Of a stretch of DNA of 64,000 nucleotides, positions 16,915 to 50,919 are shown in pieces (positions within the stretch are counted from its first letter, which is position 1; each line of letters starts with the position of its first letter). Where the stretch lies: the IMG/VR virus record IMGVR_UViG_2744054962_000001; one strand, 5' to 3'. Source of the stretch: a virus. Taxonomy: Duplodnaviria; Heunggongvirae; Uroviricota; Caudoviricetes. The translations under genes and the position numbers were made by a program. Under the pieces are notes generated by a model. That model saw only the letters and a program-made list of their open reading frames with translations, did no database searches and had not been told where the DNA came from.

Positions 16915-17583
16915 ATGACCAAGATCTTTGTGGTTGGCGGCACAAAGGGCGGGCCTGGCAAATCCACCGTTGCCCAGCAAATTGCCGTTTGCCTGAAAGT
17001 CAAAAAGAAGAAGAAGGTTTATATTACCGATATAGATATTCAGCGCACGACAACGAGCTGGTGTGAAGACCGTCGACAGAACGAAGACCTTGAGCTGATT
17101 CCTTTTGCATACGTTCAGGATGACATCATTAAGCACCTAAAATCGCTTCAGGGTAGAGCTGAGTTTGTAGTGGTAGATGCTGGTGGCTTCGACTCCGAAA
17201 TTCAGCGACAAGCGATGCTGATGGCTGACGTTATCATTATCCCGCTGCGTCCTAAGCGTCGTGATTTGAAATCTTTACGTGACATCGATCCTATTATCGA
17301 CAATGTTCGCAATGTAAACGATAAAGTGAAGGTCCGCGCGGTCATGAACCAGTGCCCGGCTTTGCCATCACAAGTGTCTCGCATTCTGGCGGCTAAAGAG
17401 ATTGTTGAGACGTTTGGAATCGAGTCTGCGCCAGTCAATCTATATAACCGCAACGTCTATGATGATGCGGAAGAGTCTGGTCGTTCTATCTTTGAAATGA
17501 CCGGTAGCGAGCGCGACAAAAAGGCGGAAGCCGAGTTTGAAGAATTTGTAGATTATCTGTTGAGTCTGGAGGAAGAAGAATAA
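16915..17583 (+). CDS. parA: ParA-type partition ATPase
   Basis: deviant Walker A GGTKGGPGKST; 222 aa; followed by small RHH protein. Confidence 0.8.
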   Translation: MTKIFVVGGTKGGPGKSTVAQQIAVCLKVKKKKKVYITDIDIQRTTTSWCEDRRQNEDLELIPFAYVQDDIIKHLKSLQGRAEFVVVDAGGFDSEIQRQAMLMADVIIIPLRPKRRDLKSLRDIDPIIDNVRNVNDKVKVRAVMNQCPALPSQVSRILAAKEIVETFGIESAPVNLYNRNVYDDAEESGRSIFEMTGSERDKKAEAEFEEFVDYLLSLEEEE

Positions 17584-17942
17584 TGTCCATGAAAATGGGT
17601 GACCTAGCAAAGCGCAAAGAGCCTGATGCACCGGCTAAGAACACAACTCCTTTGCGCCAACCAGTCAGACCACAAGGACGCCCGACTCGTGGCAAAGAGA
17701 AAATTAAAAGCCGCACTATGTCACTGGAAGACGAATACTTCGAGCTTCTGGAAATGATGAAGTTTATCCCTCGTTTCGAGAAGTTCACCCGCTCTGATGT
17801 GATTCGTGCTGCTATTTTCCATCTGGCAGAGAAGTCACCGCAGGAAATCGAGGACATCGTAAAGCTGAACGAGGCGATCACAGCTGCCGATGTCACGATG
17901 CGTACCGATGAAATTAAACGCGAGTTGATGAAGAAAGGTTAA
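17583..17942 (+). CDS. small RHH partition protein (ParG/omega-like)
   Basis: 119 aa, basic disordered N-terminus then predicted strand-helix-helix; translationally coupled to parA. Confidence 0.45.
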   Translation: MSMKMGDLAKRKEPDAPAKNTTPLRQPVRPQGRPTRGKEKIKSRTMSLEDEYFELLEMMKFIPRFEKFTRSDVIRAAIFHLAEKSPQEIEDIVKLNEAITAADVTMRTDEIKRELMKKG

Positions 17943-17945
17943 TAA

Positions 17946-17973
17946 TGTGGGCTGTCTAGCCCACATTATTTTA
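17946..17973 (+). terminator. rho-independent terminator after partition operon
   Basis: ATGTGGGCT-gtct-AGCCCACAT followed by TATTTT. Confidence 0.6.
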
Positions 17974-26823: not shown

Positions 26824-27039
26824 ATGATCGTATTAAGTAAACGGGAGAAGGAAACGCTTCATGAAATCAGTAAGTGGCCGGAGTTCCCTGAGTACTGGAA
26901 GCCTAAAACGCGAGCTAAGTTAGAGCGGTTAGGGTTGGTTGCAAACGTTTCTGAAACGAAGTGTTCGGCCAACTACCAGTTAACTGATAAAGGGAAAGTA
27001 TTGCTACAGCAATTAGTAGAATCAGGAGTGTTAAAATGA
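26824..27039 (+). CDS. hypothetical protein
   Basis: 71 aa, AAGGAG RBS upstream. Confidence 0.3.
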   Translation: MIVLSKREKETLHEISKWPEFPEYWKPKTRAKLERLGLVANVSETKCSANYQLTDKGKVLLQQLVESGVLK

Positions 27040-27184
27040 TTCCATACATCTCATTAGCTTTTATGGGTGGCTTCCTTATCGGCTTCGGCATCTGTCGTGA
27101 TTTAATTAAGCAGGAACTTAAAACCAAAACACTGTGCATCGGAAAGCGTGTGTATCGGGTAGTTCATGAAACAAAGGTTAGAAA

Positions 27185-27475: not shown

Positions 27476-28253
27476 AAACATATCGATAAGTATTTACTTA
27501 CTTATCCTTTGTGTATAAGATGACTTTGTTTTCGTTGAGACGCGACTGTTTGAACTTAAATACAAGTGCAAACGAAGAAGTCTATCTGGCAGTAGCCTAA
27601 TAAGCCAAACACCAGCGAGGTCAGTTTCCAGCCTCGTTACCGAAATGGGACACACTGAGCGAGTGTGATTGCAGAACGCAGGAGGGAACATTCATGTTCC
27701 CTCCGATGAAGTAACAGAATGGGCGGTTGGTATATTTTCAACTCCATATGACTCCCGGATTCTTAGCCACTGACCGCCCATCCTGTTACGTCATTTTGTT
27801 CAATTATGTCGTTTATACTGGGTTAAAAAGCGGCGACGTAGCCCGGCTGGTATGGTTAGCCAGCACACAACGTTGAGGCCATTACATTTTTATCAATTCT
27901 AAGGTTCTATTCACAGAGATACCGGCGAGCGTTGATATGTAACATGTTGGGCAAACATTCAATCGGAGTAGTGGCCTCAACGTTGTGAAGACGGGATTGT
28001 TGTGTAGGTTTAACCACTGTTGCCATTGGTGCCTGTTTTCACAACAAATGATTCCATACATCACATTGTATAAATTACAAAGTAGGTGCTGTCCTCAGAA
28101 ACATCATCTACTTAAAGATTTTGCCTTCTACTATTGAGCGAAGTCGAAAGCGTCTGGCACTAACGAAAAGTGCAAGTAGCGGTGCGTTTCATGGCAGAAA
28201 CTAAACCGTCGCGATTGGCACTGTTGAGTAATAAATACTGGCAGTGCTGAATT

Positions 28254-28328
28254 GATGGTGTAGCTCAGCGGTAGAGCAGTTGGCTGTTAACCAACTGGTC
28301 GGTGGTTCGAATCCACCCACCATCGCCA
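28254..28328 (+). tRNA. tRNA-Asn (anticodon GTT)
   Basis: cloverleaf read by hand: acceptor GATGGTG/CACCATC, D-arm GCTC-AGCGGTA-GAGC, anticodon loop CTGTTAA, T-arm GGTGG-TTCGAAT-CCACC, encoded CCA. Confidence 0.8.
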
Positions 28329-28330
28329 AT

Positions 28331-28406
28331 GCCGGTTTAGCTCAGTTGGTAGAGCACCTGCCTTGTAAGCAGGATGTCAGCGGTTCGAATCCGTTAACCG
28401 GCACCA
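28331..28406 (+). tRNA. tRNA-Thr (anticodon TGT)
   Basis: acceptor GCCGGTT/AACCGGC, anticodon stem CCTGC/GCAGG with loop CTTGTAA, T-loop TTCGAAT, encoded CCA. Confidence 0.8.
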
Positions 28407-28414
28407 ACACAATT

Positions 28415-28501
28415 GGAGAGTAGAGAGCATGGTGCTCAAGCGGTCTTGAAAGCCGTCCCATTGCGCAAGCGATGATGGTTCGATTCCATTACTCTCCGCC
28501 A
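28415..28501 (+). tRNA. tRNA-Ser (anticodon TGA), type II with long variable arm
   Basis: acceptor GGAGAGT/ACTCTCC, anticodon loop CTTGAAA, variable-arm hairpin CATTGC-gcaa-GCGATG, T-loop TTCGATT, encoded CCA. Confidence 0.7.
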
Positions 28502-29499: not shown

Positions 29500-30054
29500 T
29501 CAATCTTCCCTTTGTTTTGGGTAGTGTTGTGTTCGTATCGCATAGGAAGCTCCGTCATTTAAATAAGTTAGGCCACGCTCTTGTGTAAATCTCTTCACAT
29601 ATCTCTTGTATGTGGCCATCAGTTCTTCGCGTTCTGCCGCAAAGAATAAAATCTGTATGCCTTCATTGTCGGCAACTTTGAGCATTAAGTCAACTAAAGT
29701 ACCGTAAAGGTATTGAAGTTCACCTAAAGTAAGATTAAAAGACCCTTCGGGTTTGGCAAATACGTTAATTGGCTCTTCCGCTCCAAGAGCAGCATTCTGG
29801 AGCTGTTCTTGCTGCCTGTCAAGTTGAATCATGTCCACAAAACTAACGACAGATACACACAACCCATAAACATCAGCACCTAACATATTATGCATAGTTT
29901 CTGCGGCAACAGGATCTAAAGAAGGAGGGCAAAAGACTAAACGGTATCTAGCCTTACGAGCTTCATTGCCAGAGAAAACAAAGTCTATATCTAAATATGA
30001 CAGATCACCCGGCAATGAAGCCAAACCAGGTGTAACCAACTTATGCAAGTGCAT
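29500..30054 (-). CDS. hypothetical protein (reverse-strand orphan upstream of recombinase)
   Basis: 184 aa, no recognisable motif. Confidence 0.3.
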   Translation of the reverse strand: MHLHKLVTPGLASLPGDLSYLDIDFVFSGNEARKARYRLVFCPPSLDPVAAETMHNMLGADVYGLCVSVVSFVDMIQLDRQQEQLQNAALGAEEPINVFAKPEGSFNLTLGELQYLYGTLVDLMLKVADNEGIQILFFAAEREELMATYKRYVKRFTQERGLTYLNDGASYAIRTQHYPKQRED

Positions 30055-30193
30055 CTGTCTCGAATCCCTCTTTATTAGTATAAGTTGTCTTATTGTACCC
30101 TACCAAACGTTTATATGCATTGTTATGTATTATTTTGATTTTCAATATTACCTCCTAGAACGAAGGGTAGATTTCAAAAAACGCATCCTTAAT

Positions 30194-30220
30194 GATTCCA
30201 TACCTACTATGTATGGAATC
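30194..30220. promoter_or_regulatory. candidate tyrosine-recombinase core site (lox/dif-like)
   Basis: GATTCCATAC-ctactat-GTATGGAATC: perfect 10-bp inverted arms around 7-bp spacer, about 100 bp upstream of recombinase gene. Confidence 0.4.
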
Positions 30221-30321
30221 ATTGCCGAAAATGAGTTACTTTTACTCTTGATCCTATAAGAATCTATGCCTAATATACTGTTTACTTATACAGTACATCG
30301 GCGTAACTCGGTGATTGTCAT

Positions 30322-31425
30322 ATGAAAAATAGCTTTGACAGAGCACGCGCTGCGGAGAACACCTCAAAAGAGGCGATTGAGTATCTCGAAAGAGCATCTC
30401 AAATGCAGGCCGTTATGATCTCCCAGGTCAGCAATGACATGAGATTCTCGGACGCATTCATGTTATTCACTCGCTTATCTCTGCTGATAACCAGACGTCG
30501 GCCAGAGATCGCTGTTCATTGTATTTTGATACATGTTTTGCCGCACATTGCCGATGTAAAAGTAAGTGACATTAATAGGTTCATGGTGAACCAACTGGTC
30601 AACCCACTAATACTGGATGGCAAAATTGTTATGGGCCGCCGCGTTTTCTCTCTGATGAAGCAGTTCCTTAGCTGGTGCGCCTTCCAGGGGATGATAGACG
30701 TGTCACCGTTAAACGATATGTCACTTAACAAAGTTGCCGGTGGCGCAAAGCCCACACCTCGCGAGCGGAAGCTGACCGACGCAGAGGTATGGGTGTTCTG
30801 GAATATATGGGACTACTTCAATGTGTGTGCTGGTACAAAATGGGCGGCCAGGCTATGTCTTGTATCCGCAAGACGACCTGACGAAGTACTGCGGGCTAAA
30901 AAAAGTGAGTTCAATCTTAAGCGTGGGGTTTGGAATCAAGGCAAGAGGAACAAATCTGCCCGTGAGCATTCTCTGCCTTTAAGCTCATTAATGCGCACTT
31001 GTATTGAAGAGTTGTTCGAATATGGTAAAGACAGCCAGTGGCTCGTGCCTTCGAATAAAAAAATCGGGAAAGACCTTCCTATGTCTAAAGTGGCAATAGC
31101 CCAGGCATTACGTCGTATTCTGGAACGACCAGAACTGATGGAGCTTGAGCCATTTACACCCCGAGATTTGCGCCGTACTGCGCGTAGTTACTTCCCAGCA
31201 TTAGGCATAAGCCAGGAGGTATCACGTAAAATCATGAACCACAGTCTTGAGGGGATAGATCGGGTCTACGACCGGCACGATTATATGGACGAGATGCGAG
31301 ACGCCTTAGAAAGTTTCTCGACGTACATCGCATCAATCGTAGAGCAACCGGATTTAGACGAAATTGACCACAAATTCAAGGGAGATCGTCTATCAACAGA
31401 GCTTATTCGTGTAAATTTTTCATAG
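30322..31425 (+). CDS. tyrosine site-specific recombinase (Cre-like, no arm-binding domain evident)
   Basis: catalytic-domain pattern: ...SARRPDEVLRAKKSEF...HSLPLS...RDLRRTARSY...MNHSLEGIDRVYDRHDY (R, H-x-x-R, terminal Tyr region). Confidence 0.75.
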   Translation: MKNSFDRARAAENTSKEAIEYLERASQMQAVMISQVSNDMRFSDAFMLFTRLSLLITRRRPEIAVHCILIHVLPHIADVKVSDINRFMVNQLVNPLILDGKIVMGRRVFSLMKQFLSWCAFQGMIDVSPLNDMSLNKVAGGAKPTPRERKLTDAEVWVFWNIWDYFNVCAGTKWAARLCLVSARRPDEVLRAKKSEFNLKRGVWNQGKRNKSAREHSLPLSSLMRTCIEELFEYGKDSQWLVPSNKKIGKDLPMSKVAIAQALRRILERPELMELEPFTPRDLRRTARSYFPALGISQEVSRKIMNHSLEGIDRVYDRHDYMDEMRDALESFSTYIASIVEQPDLDEIDHKFKGDRLSTELIRVNFS

Positions 31426-31806
31426 AGACTTTATGGCCTCAACAACCTTTTGTGATGCGCCTTTCTCTTTACCGAATCGCTCGTTATATGCAGCAAGAAC
31501 CTGTTTTTCGTCCTCGTTAAGAGGAGCAGTGCCTTCTTTGTATAAAAATGCTGCGAGTTCGGGTTGGCGTTCTTCCAGCACCATCATCATAAGACGACTT
31601 GGCTCAATACCCAGTGCCAGCGCCAGCGGACGAACCTTATCGATAGGCAAAGGAATTTTGCCGCTTTTAATTAAAGAAAGGTTGTTGGCGTTTTTATACC
31701 CAATTGTTTTGGCTATCTGGGCCTGGCTCATAGGTGAGGATTCAATCAACCCTGCGATAAAAGCAGCGTAGCGACTTTCTATAAATTCAATCTTGTTATC
31801 AGACAT
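31420..31806 (-). CDS. HTH (XRE-like) transcriptional regulator, candidate repressor
   Basis: 128 aa, helix-turn-helix at MSQAQIAKTIGYKNANNLSLIKSGK; convergent with recombinase. Confidence 0.55.
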   Translation of the reverse strand: MSDNKIEFIESRYAAFIAGLIESSPMSQAQIAKTIGYKNANNLSLIKSGKIPLPIDKVRPLALALGIEPSRLMMMVLEERQPELAAFLYKEGTAPLNEDEKQVLAAYNERFGKEKGASQKVVEAIKSL

Positions 31807-32057
31807 GGTTACAACCTTTGCGCGTTCAATTCTCTCTGGTAAGTGCTTACCGATATTACATCAAAGGTTATGGTTGTAAAGCTATTATCATTTTTTTCGA
31901 TAGGCACTTAAAAGACCGGTTAAAGGCCATTGCACGGAGAAAAATTAGCCAAAAATAGGTAAGAAAATCAACTTGCATATGATATGAATGTATTCAGTAT
32001 TGATACAAATTTTAGTAGTATTCCTTACCATAGTATAAGTTAGAATGGATTGATTGA

Positions 32058-35988: not shown

Positions 35989-38900
35989 ATGAAAGCACTG
36001 ATGGTTCGAACTGACTTCTCACTTGGGGAGTCGGCTCTAAAAGCAGAAAACGCGGTGAAGATTGCCAGAGAAGCTGGCTACACCGCTGTAATTTCAGCAG
36101 ATAGCATGAATATTGCGAGTGTTATTCCACTACAACGTGCCGCTGGTGACGACATGGCGGTTATTTGTGGTGTGAAACTAAATATCGTTGATGATCCTAC
36201 ATACGAGCACCGGGCTAAACTTGCTAAAGAATCTATGAGATGTATGGAATCATTAGAGCGGGGACGTAACTACTCGTTTACCGCTCTAATTAAAAATGAG
36301 CAAGGATATCGCGACATCTGCGAACTAATGACGGTGGCCAACACACGAGAACAGTTCTACTTTGTACCGCGTCTCTCGCTCGAACAGTTGGTTTCTACAT
36401 ATGCCAAAGGCAACATCATCCTGCTCACTTCCGACATCGGTAGCGTGTTCCAACGCAACGATTTTGCAAAAATCATAAGCTCACTGATTACAGCGGGCGG
36501 GAAAGACAACTTCTATAGCGTGGTTTATCCGCACCCTACCCCATTCTACGACCAGATTAACGTCCGAGCGATGAAAGTAGCCAGCGCACTGAAAATAGAG
36601 CCAGTAGCGTTCTATCCCGCTTATTACGAATCGATCGACGATGCAGACATTAAAGACATTGCGCACATGGTTACGAACAACATAAAAATCGACCAGCCGC
36701 ATCGTCTGCGTATCCCCCACCAGCGAGATAACGCCATCAATGGTCGTCGCCATCTCCTTGAGGCGCTTAAAGCCTTCTCCGTTCGCATGGATGTGCCGGT
36801 AACAGCTGCAATGGCCTCAACAACGCAGGACTCCATTATCGATGCCTGCACATGGCGCTGGCATGAATTGCCACCAGCACTGCCCAAGATGGCAGACGAC
36901 GAACCTGCAACGCTGATGAAACTGGCTGTTGCAGGGCTGCGTAAACGTCTTACCACAAAAGAGTTTGGATACACACCACCTGCTTCTGAGAACAGGGTTT
37001 ATGTTGAGCGGCTAAAGTACGAAATGAACACGCTGACTCGCCTGGGATTTTGTGGTTACTTCCTGATGGTACGCGATCTGATGAATCACAGCCGTGAAAC
37101 TGGCATTCCTGTCGGGCCTGGTCGTGGTTCCTCTGCCGGTTCTCTGGTGGCGTGGTGCATAGGCATAACCAACGTCGACCCAATCCGTCACGGTCTTCTG
37201 TTTGAGCGTTTCATCAACCCTGAGCGTCTCGACTTGCCGGATGCGGACTTGGACTTCAGCCAGGCACGTCGCCATGAGGTGATCGAGTATCTGAATGAAC
37301 GCTACGGCGAAGATTACGTTGCAGGCATTCCGAACTTCACCTACCTGGGCGCAGCCTCTGCACTACGTGACACCGCTCGTATTTATGGTGTGGAGTCCGC
37401 AGATATGGCGGTATCAAAAGAACTGAAGAACGTCGAGGATGATAGCCTTCCATTGGAAGAGCTGCGCGAACAACTGGCAAGTCTCGACAAATACGCAACA
37501 AAATATCCTGATGCATTCAATGCAGCCTGCAAGTTACAAAGCCTTATGCGTGGCTTTGGTAGACATGCGGCAGGGATGATTGTAGCAGGTGTTCCTCTGA
37601 CAGAACGTACACCGGTTGAGCGCCGTGGTGACGCGCGTTGTATCGCATTTGACAAGCGTTACTGCGAGGCTATGGGCCTAATTAAGCTGGACGTGCTTGG
37701 CCTGGCAACTCTCGATTTGCTCGATAGTGCAAAACGCTACATAAAAGAGAACACAGGTGAAGATATCAATCTTGATGCCATTTCTCTTGAAGATCGCAAG
37801 GTGCTGGATGGTTTTGCTGCAGGGTATACACAGGGCGTATTCCAGCTGGAGTCCGGCCCCATGCGCAAGCTGCTTAAAGATCTAGGCGGTGGCATTGAGC
37901 CAATGAGCTTTAAAACCGTTGTCGCCACGACCGCACTCTTCCGACCTGGCCCGATCCAATCCGGCATGTTGGACGACTATGTCTCCGTGGCCAAAGGCTT
38001 CATGGCTCCACATTCAATTCATCCGCGTCTTGAGGAAGTCACCCGGGAGACTAATGGTGTTTTGCTCTATCAGGAACAAATCATGCAAAGTTCCCGAGTA
38101 CTTGCCGGGTTCTCTATGGCCGAAGCAGACGCTCTGCGTTCCGCTATCGGTAAAAAGAACATGGATAAGATGAAAGCGATCGGCAGCGATTTTGTAGAAC
38201 GAGCACAAGCAGGCTGGGTGACACTGTCACTCAAAAATGGAGGCACTGTAGAGGTTCACAAACACGCAAAACTGGATTGCTCAGACGGTAAGCGTAGAAG
38301 CTACAGCGAGGCTATTAGTGACGGCATAGACTACGTGGAGATCGTCTCTGAACAAGAAGGTCTCAGTAAGGAAAAAGCCCAAGAAATATGGGACGCCTTT
38401 GAGAAGTTCGGTGGATATGCCTTCAATAAATCACACTCCGTTGCTTATTCTTTAATCAGTTATCAGTCTATGTGGTTAAAGACACATTACCCTGCTGAGT
38501 TCTTCGCTGCTGCGCTCACCATTCTGGGCGAGGATAAGCACCAGGGGCTGGTTAAGGATGCGCTGACCTATGGCATTCGCGTATTGCCACCAGACGTTAA
38601 CGTGTCATCTAACCGAATCGAGATCCGCACGCTTGAAGATGGCAGCCAGGTGCTGTATGCGCCATTCTCTGCTGTGAAAGGCTGTTCTGAAAATGGTTGT
38701 CAGGCAATTATGCGTGCGCGTGAGAAAGTTGGTGGCAAATTCGAGTCAGTGGCACAATTCGATGAAGCGGTCGAGAAGCGTGCATGTAACAGTCGTGTAC
38801 GCGAGTCGCTTCATAAAGTAGGGGCTTTTGCGTCAATTGAGCCAGGCAGTCTGCCAGCAACTGATCCTGAACGACTGCGCGACCAGGCTGAGCTGATGGG

Positions 38901-47805: not shown

Positions 47806-47855
47806 ATCGCAATTATCTTATTAAGAAAACAATTTGTTTAAAAGGATAAGAAAAC

Positions 47856-49379: not shown

Positions 49380-49860
49380 ACCAACCACTGCGGTGAGTAG
49401 CCAGCTCACCGCATTCGTATCAGCTCATTATCCACCGTGGTCTGCAGTCCTCTCTTCCTACATATCTGCTAACCACTGTAGCGAGTAGACAGCCTTTCAT
49501 TCGCATCAAACAACCACTATGGTGAGTATTGGAGTGAGATGTCCAGCTGGTATCCACTATGGTGAGTAAGCCTTTGCTGTTTTCAGTGGATATCCACTCG
49601 CCACAGTGGATACGCTCAAAGATGAGGGCGACAACAACCACTATAGACAGTGAATTTTCCAAGATACCCAGTGACCACTAACCTCGCAGCCCTTGTTTCA
49701 TCAGTGTTAGTGATCACTAACATTTAATTCAGTATTTGCATTCTACTGCCTACAGTGGTTATCAACAGATAACGATACTCACTATAGTGGATAGCGAATT
49801 ACAGATATAAGTAAGGCTCACTACAGTGGATAGTGAGCCTTACTACTAACTACAGTGGTT
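49380..49860. repeat. iteron array downstream of repA (candidate copy-control/incompatibility locus)
   Basis: at least 10 copies in both orientations of a CCACTATAG / CTATAGTGG(AT) core, e.g. CCACTGCGGTGAG, CCACTATGGTGAG, CACTATAGTGGATAG, CTACAGTGGATAG. Confidence 0.6.
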
Positions 49861-49863
49861 GGG

Positions 49864-50919
49864 CTATTTGCGAGTCTTTGCCTTGCGCAACTCTTCGAGA
49901 AGCGCCAGTTCTTCTTTACTCAACATGACCATTTTGCCTTCTTTTTCGTCAGGCACAACGTCGATAATGTCATCTTGATTCTCATCTGGGAGGCTATATT
50001 CCGTCTCATCATTATCGATTTTTGTTGATATTTGTGCCTGGCGTAACTTTGGCCGCCTATAGTGGATGATGAAGTAGACCGAGTTTCCGCGCTTAACTTC
50101 CGTGTAATCGAGATATCCTATCTCTCGCAGCTGTTCCATAGCCTTTCTTACCGTCGCATTCTGAGTAATAGTGCGACTTGTCAGATTAAGTCTGGCGCGT
50201 AAACGAGCTAGTGATATTGGTGCCGGATCAGGCGGCAAACTTTCAATAAAAGTATAAAGCGCCTGAGCGGATTCTTTTCTTGAGAGTTCGTTTATAGCCC
50301 GGAGTTGCAGAAGAACCTTTTTGTCGAACTGGTAGAGTTCGAAAATCTTGGGATCTGCTTTCAGTTCGACCGTATCGTGCTTGACACTATATTTTGCCGT
50401 TTGCACAAGATGCGTTACGTAAAACTCATCAGAGCCTTTGCTACGGAACGAGATGGTATTTGTGGCAATACGGCTTAGCGAACTGTCCAGGCGTTTGCGT
50501 AACTTCGCTGATGACCTGGCGGTCGGAATGCCACACAGCCTTACAAACTCAACGAACGGCAACGTGACAGTATCGCCAACGACCTTGTGTTTGGCAAACG
50601 CGTGGATTATTCCCACCCACGTTTTAAAGTCGTTATCCATATCAAGCCGAAGGCCAGAGATCCTTATGTCTTCGTACCCTTCGGCTTTTGCCAGAGACAG
50701 CTGTTTGAGTTCAGCAGAGGCATCCATAGAGACCATTTGCCCCTTTCTTCCTCTGGATGTCGATTTCAGCGTCGGAACGAAGAGGCCCAGACGCATCAAA
50801 GCAACAGGCTGAACAGTGTTATTAGTGTTAGGAACCAACGTAACAACTTCGCCTGTCTTTTTATCTGTTTCTGAAAATGCTTCAACGATCGCTATGTTTT
50901 TATTGCCGTTTTCGCTCAT
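49864..50919 (-). CDS. repA: plasmid-type replication initiator RepA
   Basis: 351 aa; gene flanked on both sides by iteron arrays and upstream DnaA box, the classic iteron-replicon layout; protein identity not searched. Confidence 0.55.

Follow-up and report, generated by a model that had tools for sequence, protein, structure and literature searches.

A tyrosine recombinase gene and a conserved candidate core recombination site on SSU5-type phage-plasmids and unrelated megaplasmids

The DNA analysed (the window) is a 64 000-nucleotide stretch of a tailed-phage record, IMGVR_UViG_2744054962_000001. It represents an SSU5/pHCM2-type phage-plasmid, and the region treated here is 100% identical to an E. 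coli plasmid. The locus holds a tyrosine recombinase gene annotated as an integrase, a palindrome upstream of it, a convergent helix-turn-helix (HTH) gene downstream and a variable cargo gene to the left; further copies of one palindrome arm lie kilobases away (Table 1).

Table 1. Features of the recombinase locus and outlying copies of the palindrome arm
Feature	Coordinates	Strand	Description
Lone copy (i)	27035..27050	+	AATGATTCCATACATC; overlaps start codon of 50-aa ORF (MIPYI...)
Lone copy (ii)	28047..28062	+	~200 bp upstream of tRNA-Asn/Thr/Ser cluster
Variable cargo gene	29500..30054	-	184 aa, PHROG 28788; hot spot between grxA and site
A6 tract	30176..30181	+	9-10 bp left of palindrome
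Candidate core recombination site	30191..30223	.	Left arm AATGATTCCATAC (30191-30203), spacer CTACTAT (30204-30210), right arm GTATGGAATCATT (30211-30223)
Candidate integrase promoter	30248..30276	+	TTGATC (30248-30253), 17 nt, TAATAT (30271-30276); read from sequence
Tyrosine recombinase gene	30322..31425	+	367 aa; lambda/P4-type core-binding and catalytic domains
Doubtful copy (iii)	30928..30940	-	GTTTGGAATCAAG; inside integrase gene, encoding VWNQ
HTH gene	31420..31806	-	128 aa; weak HTH_19 match; PHROG regulator match 1.3e-11
Lone copy (iv)	36239..36254	-	Inside dnaE, encoding (G/R)CMESL

The two arms of the palindrome are perfect 13-bp inverted repeats around a 7-bp spacer, and its right edge lies 98 bp upstream of the integrase ATG (30322). 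It can also be parsed with one base at the centre and 16-nt arms that mismatch once. An earlier note, made from the letters of the sequence, had described inverted arms with a 7-bp spacer about 100 bp upstream of the gene, which is what the sequence holds; it was right that the arms are perfect and too short in giving them 10 bp. Only three perfect inverted repeats in the whole window have arms this long (13 bp or more) with 3-10 bp between them. Block shuffling left 26 of 30 sequences free of any repeat with arms of at least 11 bp, and the longest arm it produced was 12 bp.

The recombinase matches Pfam Phage_integrase (PF00589) above the curated cut-off (E 2.9e-10), with a weak match to Phage_int_M (PF22022). 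Its catalytic residues are intact: R185, K211, R281, R284, H307 and Y316 show little or no variation across 91 homologues, in agreement with the clear catalytic domain that the earlier note had seen. The signature of the superfamily (R...K...H-x-x-R...H/W...Y) is present apart from the first position of box II, which is Arg (R281) throughout this family and His in lambda Int and Cre; because of this substitution, recombinase activity is assumed here. The lack of an N-terminal arm-binding domain, also claimed before, was borne out in several ways. Pfam gave no arm-binding domain and no match before residue 71, the alignment to NCBIfam PRK09692 begins at model position 137, and the distant homologues, 24-31% identical, are P4-type integrases that do carry Arm-DNA-bind_3 (PF13356). 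In an AlphaFold2 model (mean pLDDT 89.7) residues 1-40 form short helices only, a short helical N-terminus standing in place of the arm-binding domain.

The description 'Cre-like' did not hold as a statement of kinship. Searching the PDB with the single protein gave no match, and a profile and fold search was needed. The family profile matched lambda Int (E 1.2e-11) and P4-type core-binding domains, and no Cre chain at E <= 1. Foldseek placed lambda Int (1z1b, the top structural match, E 9e-8), Tn1549 Int, XerH and IntI before Cre, which reached only about 1e-2. The protein is a lambda/P4-type integrase minus the arm-binding domain, and no relative of Cre. The gene is expressed in the lysogen of phage Cyrano at 49.5 normalised reads, ~5-fold the gene median, where the structural genes in the plasmid state have about 7-10 (S1 Table, PMC9928086).

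The HTH gene and the recombinase gene overlap at their 3′ ends by 6 bp, TCATAG, which spans both stop codons. A convergent, overlapping HTH regulator had been noted together with the recombinase; the gene and the overlap are there, while membership of the recombinase system did not stand, since the gene lies beside the recombinase in SSU5-type phage-plasmids only and is missing from the megaplasmid copies described below. Judging from this distribution, it is a regulator of the SSU5-type backbone, outside the portable module. It is labelled 'putative repressor' in Cyrano, and its expression in the lysogen is ~10-fold background (PMC9928086). An operator search for it found weak GGTAAG/CTTACC repeats only.

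We retrieved 64 loci by the recombinase protein alone. In nearly all of them an inverted repeat precedes the recombinase gene, ~60-170 bp upstream. When the loci are aligned on the palindrome centre, the arms reach 2 bits per position and are the sole invariant island, with poorly conserved flanks. The spacer is always 7 bp long and its sequence depends on the lineage, with at least 19 variants of a loose nTAnTAn pattern. Arm sequence follows the protein: recombinases at least 57% identical to that of the window (clade A) have arms TGATTCCATAC, and those 45-53% identical (clade B) have TGACTCCAGAC. The change consists of two substitutions, symmetric in both arms, and intermediates exist. Three Chimaeribacter genomes carry two gene-site pairs each, on separate contigs and with unlike arms.

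Since arm sequence tracks the recombinase even between replicons with no further gene in common, the protein that binds them is probably the recombinase, and recombinase-binding sites inverted 7 bp apart would make a core site by construction. The architecture is the one known from simple recombinase/site pairs such as Cre/loxP, Dre/rox and Vika/vox, with two inverted arms in the 11-15 bp class, a spacer within 6-8 bp, a place near the gene and no arm-type sites. These sequence comparisons make it very probable that the palindrome serves the recombinase as its own core site of the simple type; the lox-type core site proposed before thus gains from its retention beside the gene in unrelated replicons and from arms that change with the recombinase clade. 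Palindromes beside recombinase genes were the true target in about half of tested Cre-type candidates (PMC10250229). Our literature search for the site sequences and a described function returned nothing relevant.

The gene occurs in 252 of 5426 complete E. coli genomes (4.6%), with no chromosomal place among them, and a search of the same 5426 genomes for a 36-nt site sequence likewise gave 252 genomes, one locus each, none chromosomal. This agrees with the earlier preference for a plasmid role over chromosomal integration. The E. coli search gave no record with a second site and no junction of a dimer or cointegrate at the site. Gene and site also occur together, without any SSU5 gene and amid metabolic genes, on a 508-kb Pantoea and a 549-kb Rahnella plasmid; megaplasmids of these genera with the lone gene-site module span 250-550 kb. 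PLSDB has integrase-like matches in ~1000 plasmids, including those of Klebsiella, Salmonella and Yersinia pestis, the weakest of these matches being more distant integrases. A site for multimer resolution would be expected once per replicon, on plasmids and independent of the remaining backbone, and this is the distribution found.

Our main reading, with a probability of about 0.62, is that the recombinase acts on the neighbouring 33-bp palindrome as its cognate core site, chiefly for multimer resolution. One monomer would bind each 11-13 bp arm, and strands would be exchanged across the 7-bp spacer. With the arm-binding domain of its P4/lambda-type ancestors lost, the recombinase would need no arm-type sites, which leaves a simple two-component system comparable in function to Cre/loxP or XerCD/dif. 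Replicon dimers, having two directly repeated sites, would be converted to monomers on the low-copy phage-plasmid and on the megaplasmids, so that partition works. Because the spacer decides which sites are compatible, the natural spacer variants would bar recombination between lineages. We infer DNA binding, the cleavage positions, recombination activity and the resolution role from the features of gene and site given above. Host XerCD could in principle serve these plasmids instead.

The arm 13-mer is the most over-represented 13-mer of the window, where it occurs exactly five times: at 27035+, 28047+, 30191+, 30211- and 36242-. Two of these are the palindrome itself. The others belong to lone copies of 15-16 bp (ATGATTCCATACATC), a form defined in the Escherichia/Klebsiella/Kluyvera branch of SSU5-type phage-plasmids, which lie up to 6 kb to either side and are all aimed toward the core site. 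Their synteny is constant across all loci examined. Copy (i) keeps its syntenic place in divergent relatives despite variable flanks, and copy (ii) is preceded by a conserved CACAAC. Copy (iv) forces the residues CMESL onto DnaE: its 12-mer is present in all 35 clade-A loci that cover the position, synonymous positions included, and three clade-B SSU5-type loci have the unrelated residues EELLPI, EPVLDY and QELLPV there. The lone half-sites are a clean and rare case of a DNA motif overriding protein-coding constraint. Searches of 10 kb on each side found no lone copies in clade B or in Chimaeribacter, with one mismatch allowed for the clade-B SSU5-type loci. In the window, copy (iii), inside the integrase gene, departs from the 11-mer at one base; the Klebsiella and Kluyvera lineages have it without a mismatch. 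It may simply reflect conservation of the WxQG motif in the protein, and we count it as doubtful because its co-variation with the arms is inconsistent.

Several explanations of the lone copies were rejected. They are not degenerate full sites, having no conserved second arm 7 bp away, nor mini-ORFs (MIPYI), since a ribosome-binding site is present at copy (i) alone, which indicates that the constraint acts on DNA. A shufflon-like inversion between copies (i) and (iv) predicts a junction that is absent from all 219 E. coli genomes searched, and in the one apparently rearranged lineage (L007/L027) the locus is merely in reverse orientation. Arm copies kilobases away are unexpected for simple resolution and suggest something more in this lineage. 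Recruitment of the half-site for a second, non-recombination job is a tentative idea, on balance unlikely. Recombinase bound at the lone copies would then organise or regulate the replication-gene region, by looping to the core site, as a transcriptional roadblock, or as a polar signal like the XerD-binding sites around dif.

The left flank of the site is a hot spot. Nearly identical E. coli integrases have at least seven unrelated left flanks, which diverge 0-23 bp from the arm, and many alignments stop exactly at 30191. The 184-aa cargo gene of the window is missing from pECOH89 and other genes take its place in pJN2-26, PhiR41_1 and Citrobacter. It is the equivalent of CYRAN_43, which has the highest expression among the genes listed for the Cyrano lysogen (723-fold background, ~7084 normalised reads; PMC9928086); NCBIfam, PADLOC and PHROGs gave no function for it or for the 50-aa ORF at copy (i). 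Such exchange of cargo up to the very edge of the arm is what one would see if the site were mainly a landing pad for gene capture, where circles with a compatible (pseudo-)site insert in the fashion of integrons or IMEX, and the left-side lone copies are oriented as expected for a far insertion junction. We nonetheless hold this to be improbable. The present cargo has no second full or half site at its boundary; the lone copies keep fixed syntenic places, one of them within an uninterrupted dnaE, and so are not insertion scars; differing spacers would block exchange between lineages; and any selected element beside an insertion-tolerant gap gives the same breakpoints.

There is also a small chance that the palindrome is purely regulatory and takes no part in recombination, acting as an operator where the recombinase or a different dimeric protein governs the integrase promoter, as a leftward hairpin terminator, or both. 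The putative promoter fits the consensus at 8 of 12 positions, short of the scan threshold, and its TTGATC is found again at the corresponding point in divergent relatives. The centre of the palindrome is ~76 bp upstream of the putative transcription start of the integrase. As RNA, the palindrome would fold into a stable hairpin (-18 to -20 kcal/mol, z about -4). The A6 tract is kept in otherwise unrelated left flanks, in the pattern CAGAWTTYAAAAAA-N8-10-site, and could bend the DNA, act as an accessory element or supply the T-tract for a hairpin terminator of leftward transcription. Conserved arms with a free spacer are typical of operators too, and a recombinase doing no more than autoregulate at an operator would agree with the data as well. 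Autoregulation and recombination can coexist, however, and the arms co-vary with the recombinase in replicons that have no other gene in common. As a terminator the palindrome was not flagged by the terminator scan, because the T-run does not adjoin the stem.

Cyclisation of a terminally redundant linear phage genome after infection, as by Cre/loxP in P1, is permitted by the logic of a recombinase with a site, and the element is a virion-making phage-plasmid (PMC9928086). We regard it as very unlikely to be the task of this system. In the 108-kb Cyrano genome some 41 kb separate the site from the terminase genes, so that with a packaging start near these genes, as we infer, few virions would have two copies of the site; moreover, the module is also on non-phage megaplasmids and the phage carries RecA/UvsY-type recombination genes of its own. 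A lytic origin or replication terminus was rejected since the site accompanies the recombinase on megaplasmids that are no phages and repA is 20 kb away.

A conventional prophage integrase, with the palindrome as the attP core for a chromosomal attB such as a tRNA 3′ end, is extremely improbable: the protein does descend from P4-type integrases, tRNA genes lie 1.7 kb from the locus and a few homologues are on 0.4-0.9 Mb contigs not assignable to a replicon type, but gene and site are absent from the chromosomes of the 5426 complete E. coli genomes, the recombinase has no arm-binding domain, no excisionase gene was noticed beside it, those large replicons that can be identified are megaplasmids, and the tRNA-region sequence is repeated nowhere else in the window, which thus lacks the tRNA-end direct repeat that the earlier note had named as a sign of a conventional integrase. 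For E. coli, chromosomal integration is largely refuted.

Multimer resolution at the palindrome, the reading we prefer, would matter for a widespread group. The SSU5/pHCM2/pMT1-type phage-plasmids are very common and medically relevant, being present in 4.6% of complete E. coli genomes. In the literature that we searched the gene is named 'integrase' only, and phage-plasmids are described as typically without integrases; a defined site with a testable role would fill a gap in the upkeep of these replicons. Two natural arm specificities, many spacers and no kinship to Cre also make the family a plausible source of orthogonal recombinase/site pairs.

Among known systems, the P4-type (IntS/CP4-57-like) and lambda integrases are closest by sequence and fold, with PF22022 and PF00589 in common. 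Core sites of the lambda Int family have a 7-bp overlap, equal to the spacer of this site. These integrases have an N-terminal arm domain (Arm-DNA-bind_3/DUF4102; a beta-sheet in lambda Int) that is absent here, and the present system further differs from them in its perfect core arms and in an element found on no E. coli chromosome.

XerCD at dif/cer, ResD/rfsF of F and TnpI/IRS of Tn4430 resemble the present system in that each replicon has a single site, which serves maintenance, and for ResD and TnpI the site also adjoins the recombinase gene. XerCD is a host heterodimer that works on asymmetric arms with accessory proteins, and the core of TnpI has accessory repeats no more than about 100 bp away. 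Compared with these two, the present system has a single protein, symmetric arms and extra arm copies 1-6 kb off.

For functional sites with one conserved recombinase-binding arm, precedents are Rci/sfx, where the right arm and 7-bp core are conserved and the left arm is free (PMC11852207), and Bacillus subtilis XerD, which has a sequence-specific non-recombination role in SMC unloading (Karaboja et al. 2021, as cited in PMC12322038). Unlike in Rci/sfx, 219 E. coli plasmids showed no inversion between lone copies, and, unlike the XerD sites, the lone copies have nothing that ties them to SMC or MukB.

Cre/loxP of P1 is likewise a phage-plasmid tyrosine recombinase without arm-binding domain and with a single site beside its gene. 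Like this site, loxP has 13-bp perfect inverted arms and a short asymmetric spacer (PMC10250229), and Cre resolves plasmid multimers (PMC7969092). The spacer of loxP is 8 bp rather than 7 bp, Cre has W315 where this recombinase has His (H307), and the two proteins share a weak fold match only, with no detectable kinship, this one descending from P4/lambda-type integrases. The module is most likely a self-contained dimer resolution system, like Cre/loxP in function and not its kin.

The integrase gene of the window begins 98 bases downstream of a perfect palindrome (see table). The lox-type palindrome that the earlier note described upstream of the recombinase is indeed present, with arms three bases longer per side than claimed; the repeat finder also reads it with arms of 16 nt, one mismatch and a single base at the centre. 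Inverted repeats this large are rare; the window holds three perfect ones whose arms reach 13 bp or more around a spacer of 3-10 bp, and in 26 of 30 block shuffles of the window there was none with arms of at least 11 bp. Elsewhere in the window, a second palindrome just past the 3′ end of repA includes the iteron-like CACTACAGTGGATAG, to which the nearby CACTATAGTGGAT repeats are related, and a hairpin at the end of ORF 17583-17942, followed by a T-rich run, is an ordinary terminator.

Features in and around the core site and elsewhere in the window
Feature	Position	Strand	Remarks
Hairpin	17941-17970		13-bp stem, AATAATGTGGGCT-GTCT-AGCCCACATTATT
Direct repeat AGAAAACAATTTGTTTAAAA	20091-20110, 47824-47843		20 nt, exact, 27.7 kb between
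Lone copy	27035-27050	+	13-mer at 27035; start codon of 50-aa ORF
Lone copy	28047-28062	+	13-mer at 28047; ~200 bp upstream of tRNA cluster
Three tRNA genes	28254-28501		part of the element itself
184-aa gene	29500-30054	-	PHROG 28788
Promoter-like sequence of 184-aa gene	30106-30077		TTGGTA-18-TATACT
Motif CAGAWTTYAAAAAA	30170-30181		8-10 bp left of palindrome
Palindrome	30191-30223		AATGATTCCATAC-CTACTAT-GTATGGAATCATT; 13-bp arms
Integrase ORF	30322-31425	+	367 aa
Doubtful copy	30928-30940	-	inside integrase gene; one base off in window, perfect in some lineages
HTH gene	31420-31806	-	128 aa
Divergent intergenic region	31807-32057		between HTH gene and 70-aa ORF
GGTAAG/CTTACC motifs	31838, 31846, 31958, 32024		also pair TAAGTGCTTA / TAAGTGCCTA in region
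Lone copy	36239-36254	-	13-mer at 36242; dnaE codons 84-89
Translation-start context AAAGGAAAAACACATGA	48324, 53571, 60610 (also 21539, 35981)		recurs before several genes
CACTATAGTGGAT repeats	49782, 50057, 51050, 51071		
Second palindrome	49810-49844		14-bp arms, 7-bp spacer, AGTAAGGCTCACTA-CAGTGGA-TAGTGAGCCTTACT
repA	49864-50919	-	

An exact-pattern scan, biased in that the arms were a search requirement, found 101 viral contigs with the same 12-bp arms around any 7-bp spacer; a checked subset had SSU5-type gene content. The spacer depends on the lineage: Escherichia has CTACTAT and Klebsiella TTGGTAG, and CTATTAA, TTGTAAG, TATATAA and others occur elsewhere. Because of the bias, loci were retrieved a second time by protein alone (64 loci, one genome per species), and in nearly all of them the gene is preceded by an inverted repeat whose spacer is 7 bp. 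The recombinases form two groups (clades A and B) with different arm sequences: TGATTCCATAC arms accompany recombinases at least 57% identical to that of the window (Escherichia, Klebsiella, Kluyvera, Yersinia pestis, Buttiauxella, Chimaeribacter), and TGACTCCAGAC arms those 45-53% identical (Pantoea, Rahnella, Erwinia, Ewingella, Hafnia, Xenorhabdus, Photorhabdus, Morganella). The two sequences differ by the same two substitutions in both arms, and a few of the loci are intermediate. When 134 distinct upstream regions were aligned on the palindrome centre, the arms were the only fully conserved positions, the spacer being a loose nTAnTAn and the flanks weakly conserved.

An SSU5 gene adjoins the integrase in only 8 of the 64 loci (L110-L113, L118, L131, L152, L155); gene and site stand alone in the other 56, for instance on plasmids of Pantoea (508 kb) and Rahnella (549 kb), with siderophore-receptor or chemotaxis genes as neighbours. 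Two paralogous recombinase/site pairs, on separate contigs, are present in each of three Chimaeribacter genomes (L114/L167, L115/L159, L116/L162), one pair with TGATTCCATAC arms and the other with asymmetric TGACGCCAGAC / TGACTCCATAC arms. Because the site tracks the gene over unrelated replicons and changes with it, the palindrome is very probably the binding site of the adjacent recombinase, and two inverted binding sites 7 bp apart match the anatomy of a tyrosine-recombinase core site.

The spacer occurs in either orientation relative to the integrase, even with identical flanks, as in PhiR41_1 (L005 4003-4033, ATAGTAG) versus contig L048 (4935-4965, CTACTAT); TTAATAG is common among lineages, and so is its complement CTATTAA. 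Short loops between perfect inverted repeats are known to flip spontaneously, and where the arms are symmetric such a flip does the site no harm.

In the integrase ORF, Pfam finds a phage-integrase catalytic domain and a weak 'integrase central domain', with no match N-terminal to residue 71; residues 71-336 correspond to positions 137-393 of an NCBIfam integrase model. The closest homologues are a tight family annotated merely as 'site-specific integrase', and the first outgroups (24-31% identity) are P4-type integrases with an Arm-DNA-bind_3 domain that the window protein lacks. A PDB search with the single sequence gave zero matches; the family profile matched P4-type core-binding domains and lambda Int (E 1.2e-11), and Cre was not among its matches. 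The AlphaFold2 model is confident (pLDDT 89.7): four helices make up the core-binding domain, a catalytic domain is present, and residues 1-40 form short helices only. In Foldseek the top-ranked structures are lambda Int, Tn1549 Int, XerH and IntI, with Cre at E about 1e-2. R185, K211, R284, H307 and Y316 are invariant or almost so in the family, and where lambda Int has H308 the whole family has Arg (R281). We therefore regard the recombinase as an arm-less derivative of lambda/P4-type integrases. The absence of an N-terminal arm-binding domain, reported in the earlier note, is borne out; 'Cre-like' fails as a kinship label, the profile and fold comparisons having placed the protein with the lambda/P4 type. 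The enzyme may still work like Cre.

The palindrome/integrase region is 100% identical to that of E. coli plasmid pEC7518-111k, 99.3% to pECOH89 and 98.5% to phage-plasmid Cyrano (pLF82), all of SSU5/pHCM2 type. As annotated, Cyrano has virion, lysis, partition and replication genes nearly all on the same strand, terminase genes at 0.1 kb, the integrase at 41 kb, flanked by a glutaredoxin gene and cobT/cobS/dnaE, and RepA at 61 kb. Of 5,426 complete E. coli genomes, 252 carry the integrase, on plasmids only and at no chromosomal place, and 252 the 36-nt site, at one copy per genome and never on the chromosome; in E. coli there is thus no integrated form and no target on the chromosome. A tRNA-3′-end direct repeat, the mark of a conventional integrase, was looked for across the window and none was found, and no stretch of the tRNA region has a second copy elsewhere in it.

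This plasmid-only distribution, together with the megaplasmid copies and transcription in the plasmid state (in strain LF82, ~5x the median of Cyrano genes; PMC9928086, S1 Table), speaks for a role in replicon maintenance. The known function of such architecture is multimer resolution, proposed here by analogy; dimer resolution rather than chromosomal integration, as first suggested from sequence, is well supported by the comparative evidence, including the lack of chromosomal copies in the E. coli genomes. Our literature search found no paper giving this gene a function; phage-plasmid reviews count tyrosine recombinases among persistent SSU5 genes and raise dimer resolution merely as a general possibility. 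Two sites in one record were found in none of the records examined, and the recombination product was unseen.

Alignments of relatives often begin at 30168-30191, many precisely at the outermost base of the left arm, and at least seven unrelated left flanks lie beside nearly identical E. coli integrases. The glutaredoxin-site interval is a cargo hot spot: empty in pECOH89, it holds the 184-aa gene in the window and Cyrano, three small genes in pJN2-26, a 2.5-kb ORF and an AraC-like gene in PhiR41_1, and two other genes in Citrobacter. Gene capture by recombinase-mediated exchange at the site may have a minor, non-exclusive part in shaping this slot, and the breakpoints fall as it predicts; however, any insertion-tolerant gap beside a selected element should give the identical pattern, and the cargo has no second bounding site. 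The Cyrano orthologue of the 184-aa gene, CYRAN_43, reaches ~723x prophage background in the lysogen, the top expression among listed genes, which suggests a lysogenic-conversion or defence gene. Most left flanks keep an A-tract 9-10 bp from the arm. The motif CAGAWTTYAAAAAA persists in left flanks that are otherwise unrelated; it may bend the DNA, act as an accessory element, or supply the T-tract for a leftward terminator with the palindrome as stem.

The convergent HTH gene (a weak Pfam match) is real and overlaps the integrase by 6 bp at the 3′ ends, but its standing as a component of the system did not hold: in SSU5-type elements it is a conserved neighbour of the integrase, with identity falling to 37-49% in Xenorhabdus, Morganella and Photorhabdus, and it is missing from every stand-alone copy. 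It is an incidental neighbour, annotated in Cyrano as 'putative repressor' and expressed in the lysogen. The GGTAAG/CTTACC motifs and the TAAGTGCTTA / TAAGTGCCTA pair are candidate operators of the HTH protein, distinct from the recombinase motif.

The arm 13-mer has five exact occurrences in the window, two in the palindrome and the others as lone copies; the 100 kb of Cyrano hold no further ones. Lone copies extend to ATGATTCCATACATC, have no second arm, and keep the same syntenic places in divergent relatives while their flanks vary. All 35 clade-A loci covering the position have the copy in dnaE, with every synonymous position fixed, and clade-B SSU5-type elements have unrelated residues there, so that the DNA motif dictates polymerase residues CMESL in this lineage. 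The integrase-internal copy may result from the conservation of a protein motif. Copies left of the site are on the plus strand and those right of it on the minus strand, all towards the palindrome, which at three or four independent positions is only suggestive. Inversion between two lone copies was not found in 219 genomes. Lone copies belong to Escherichia/Klebsiella/Kluyvera SSU5 elements and, because clade-B elements and stand-alone modules have none, are a lineage-specific addition outside the basic system.

The system belongs to a known kind and, though uncharacterised, is widespread; the lone copies are its one odd feature. Rci/sfx is a precedent for one-armed recombinase sites and XerD for site binding by a recombinase in a non-recombination role; either precedent may apply, or neither.
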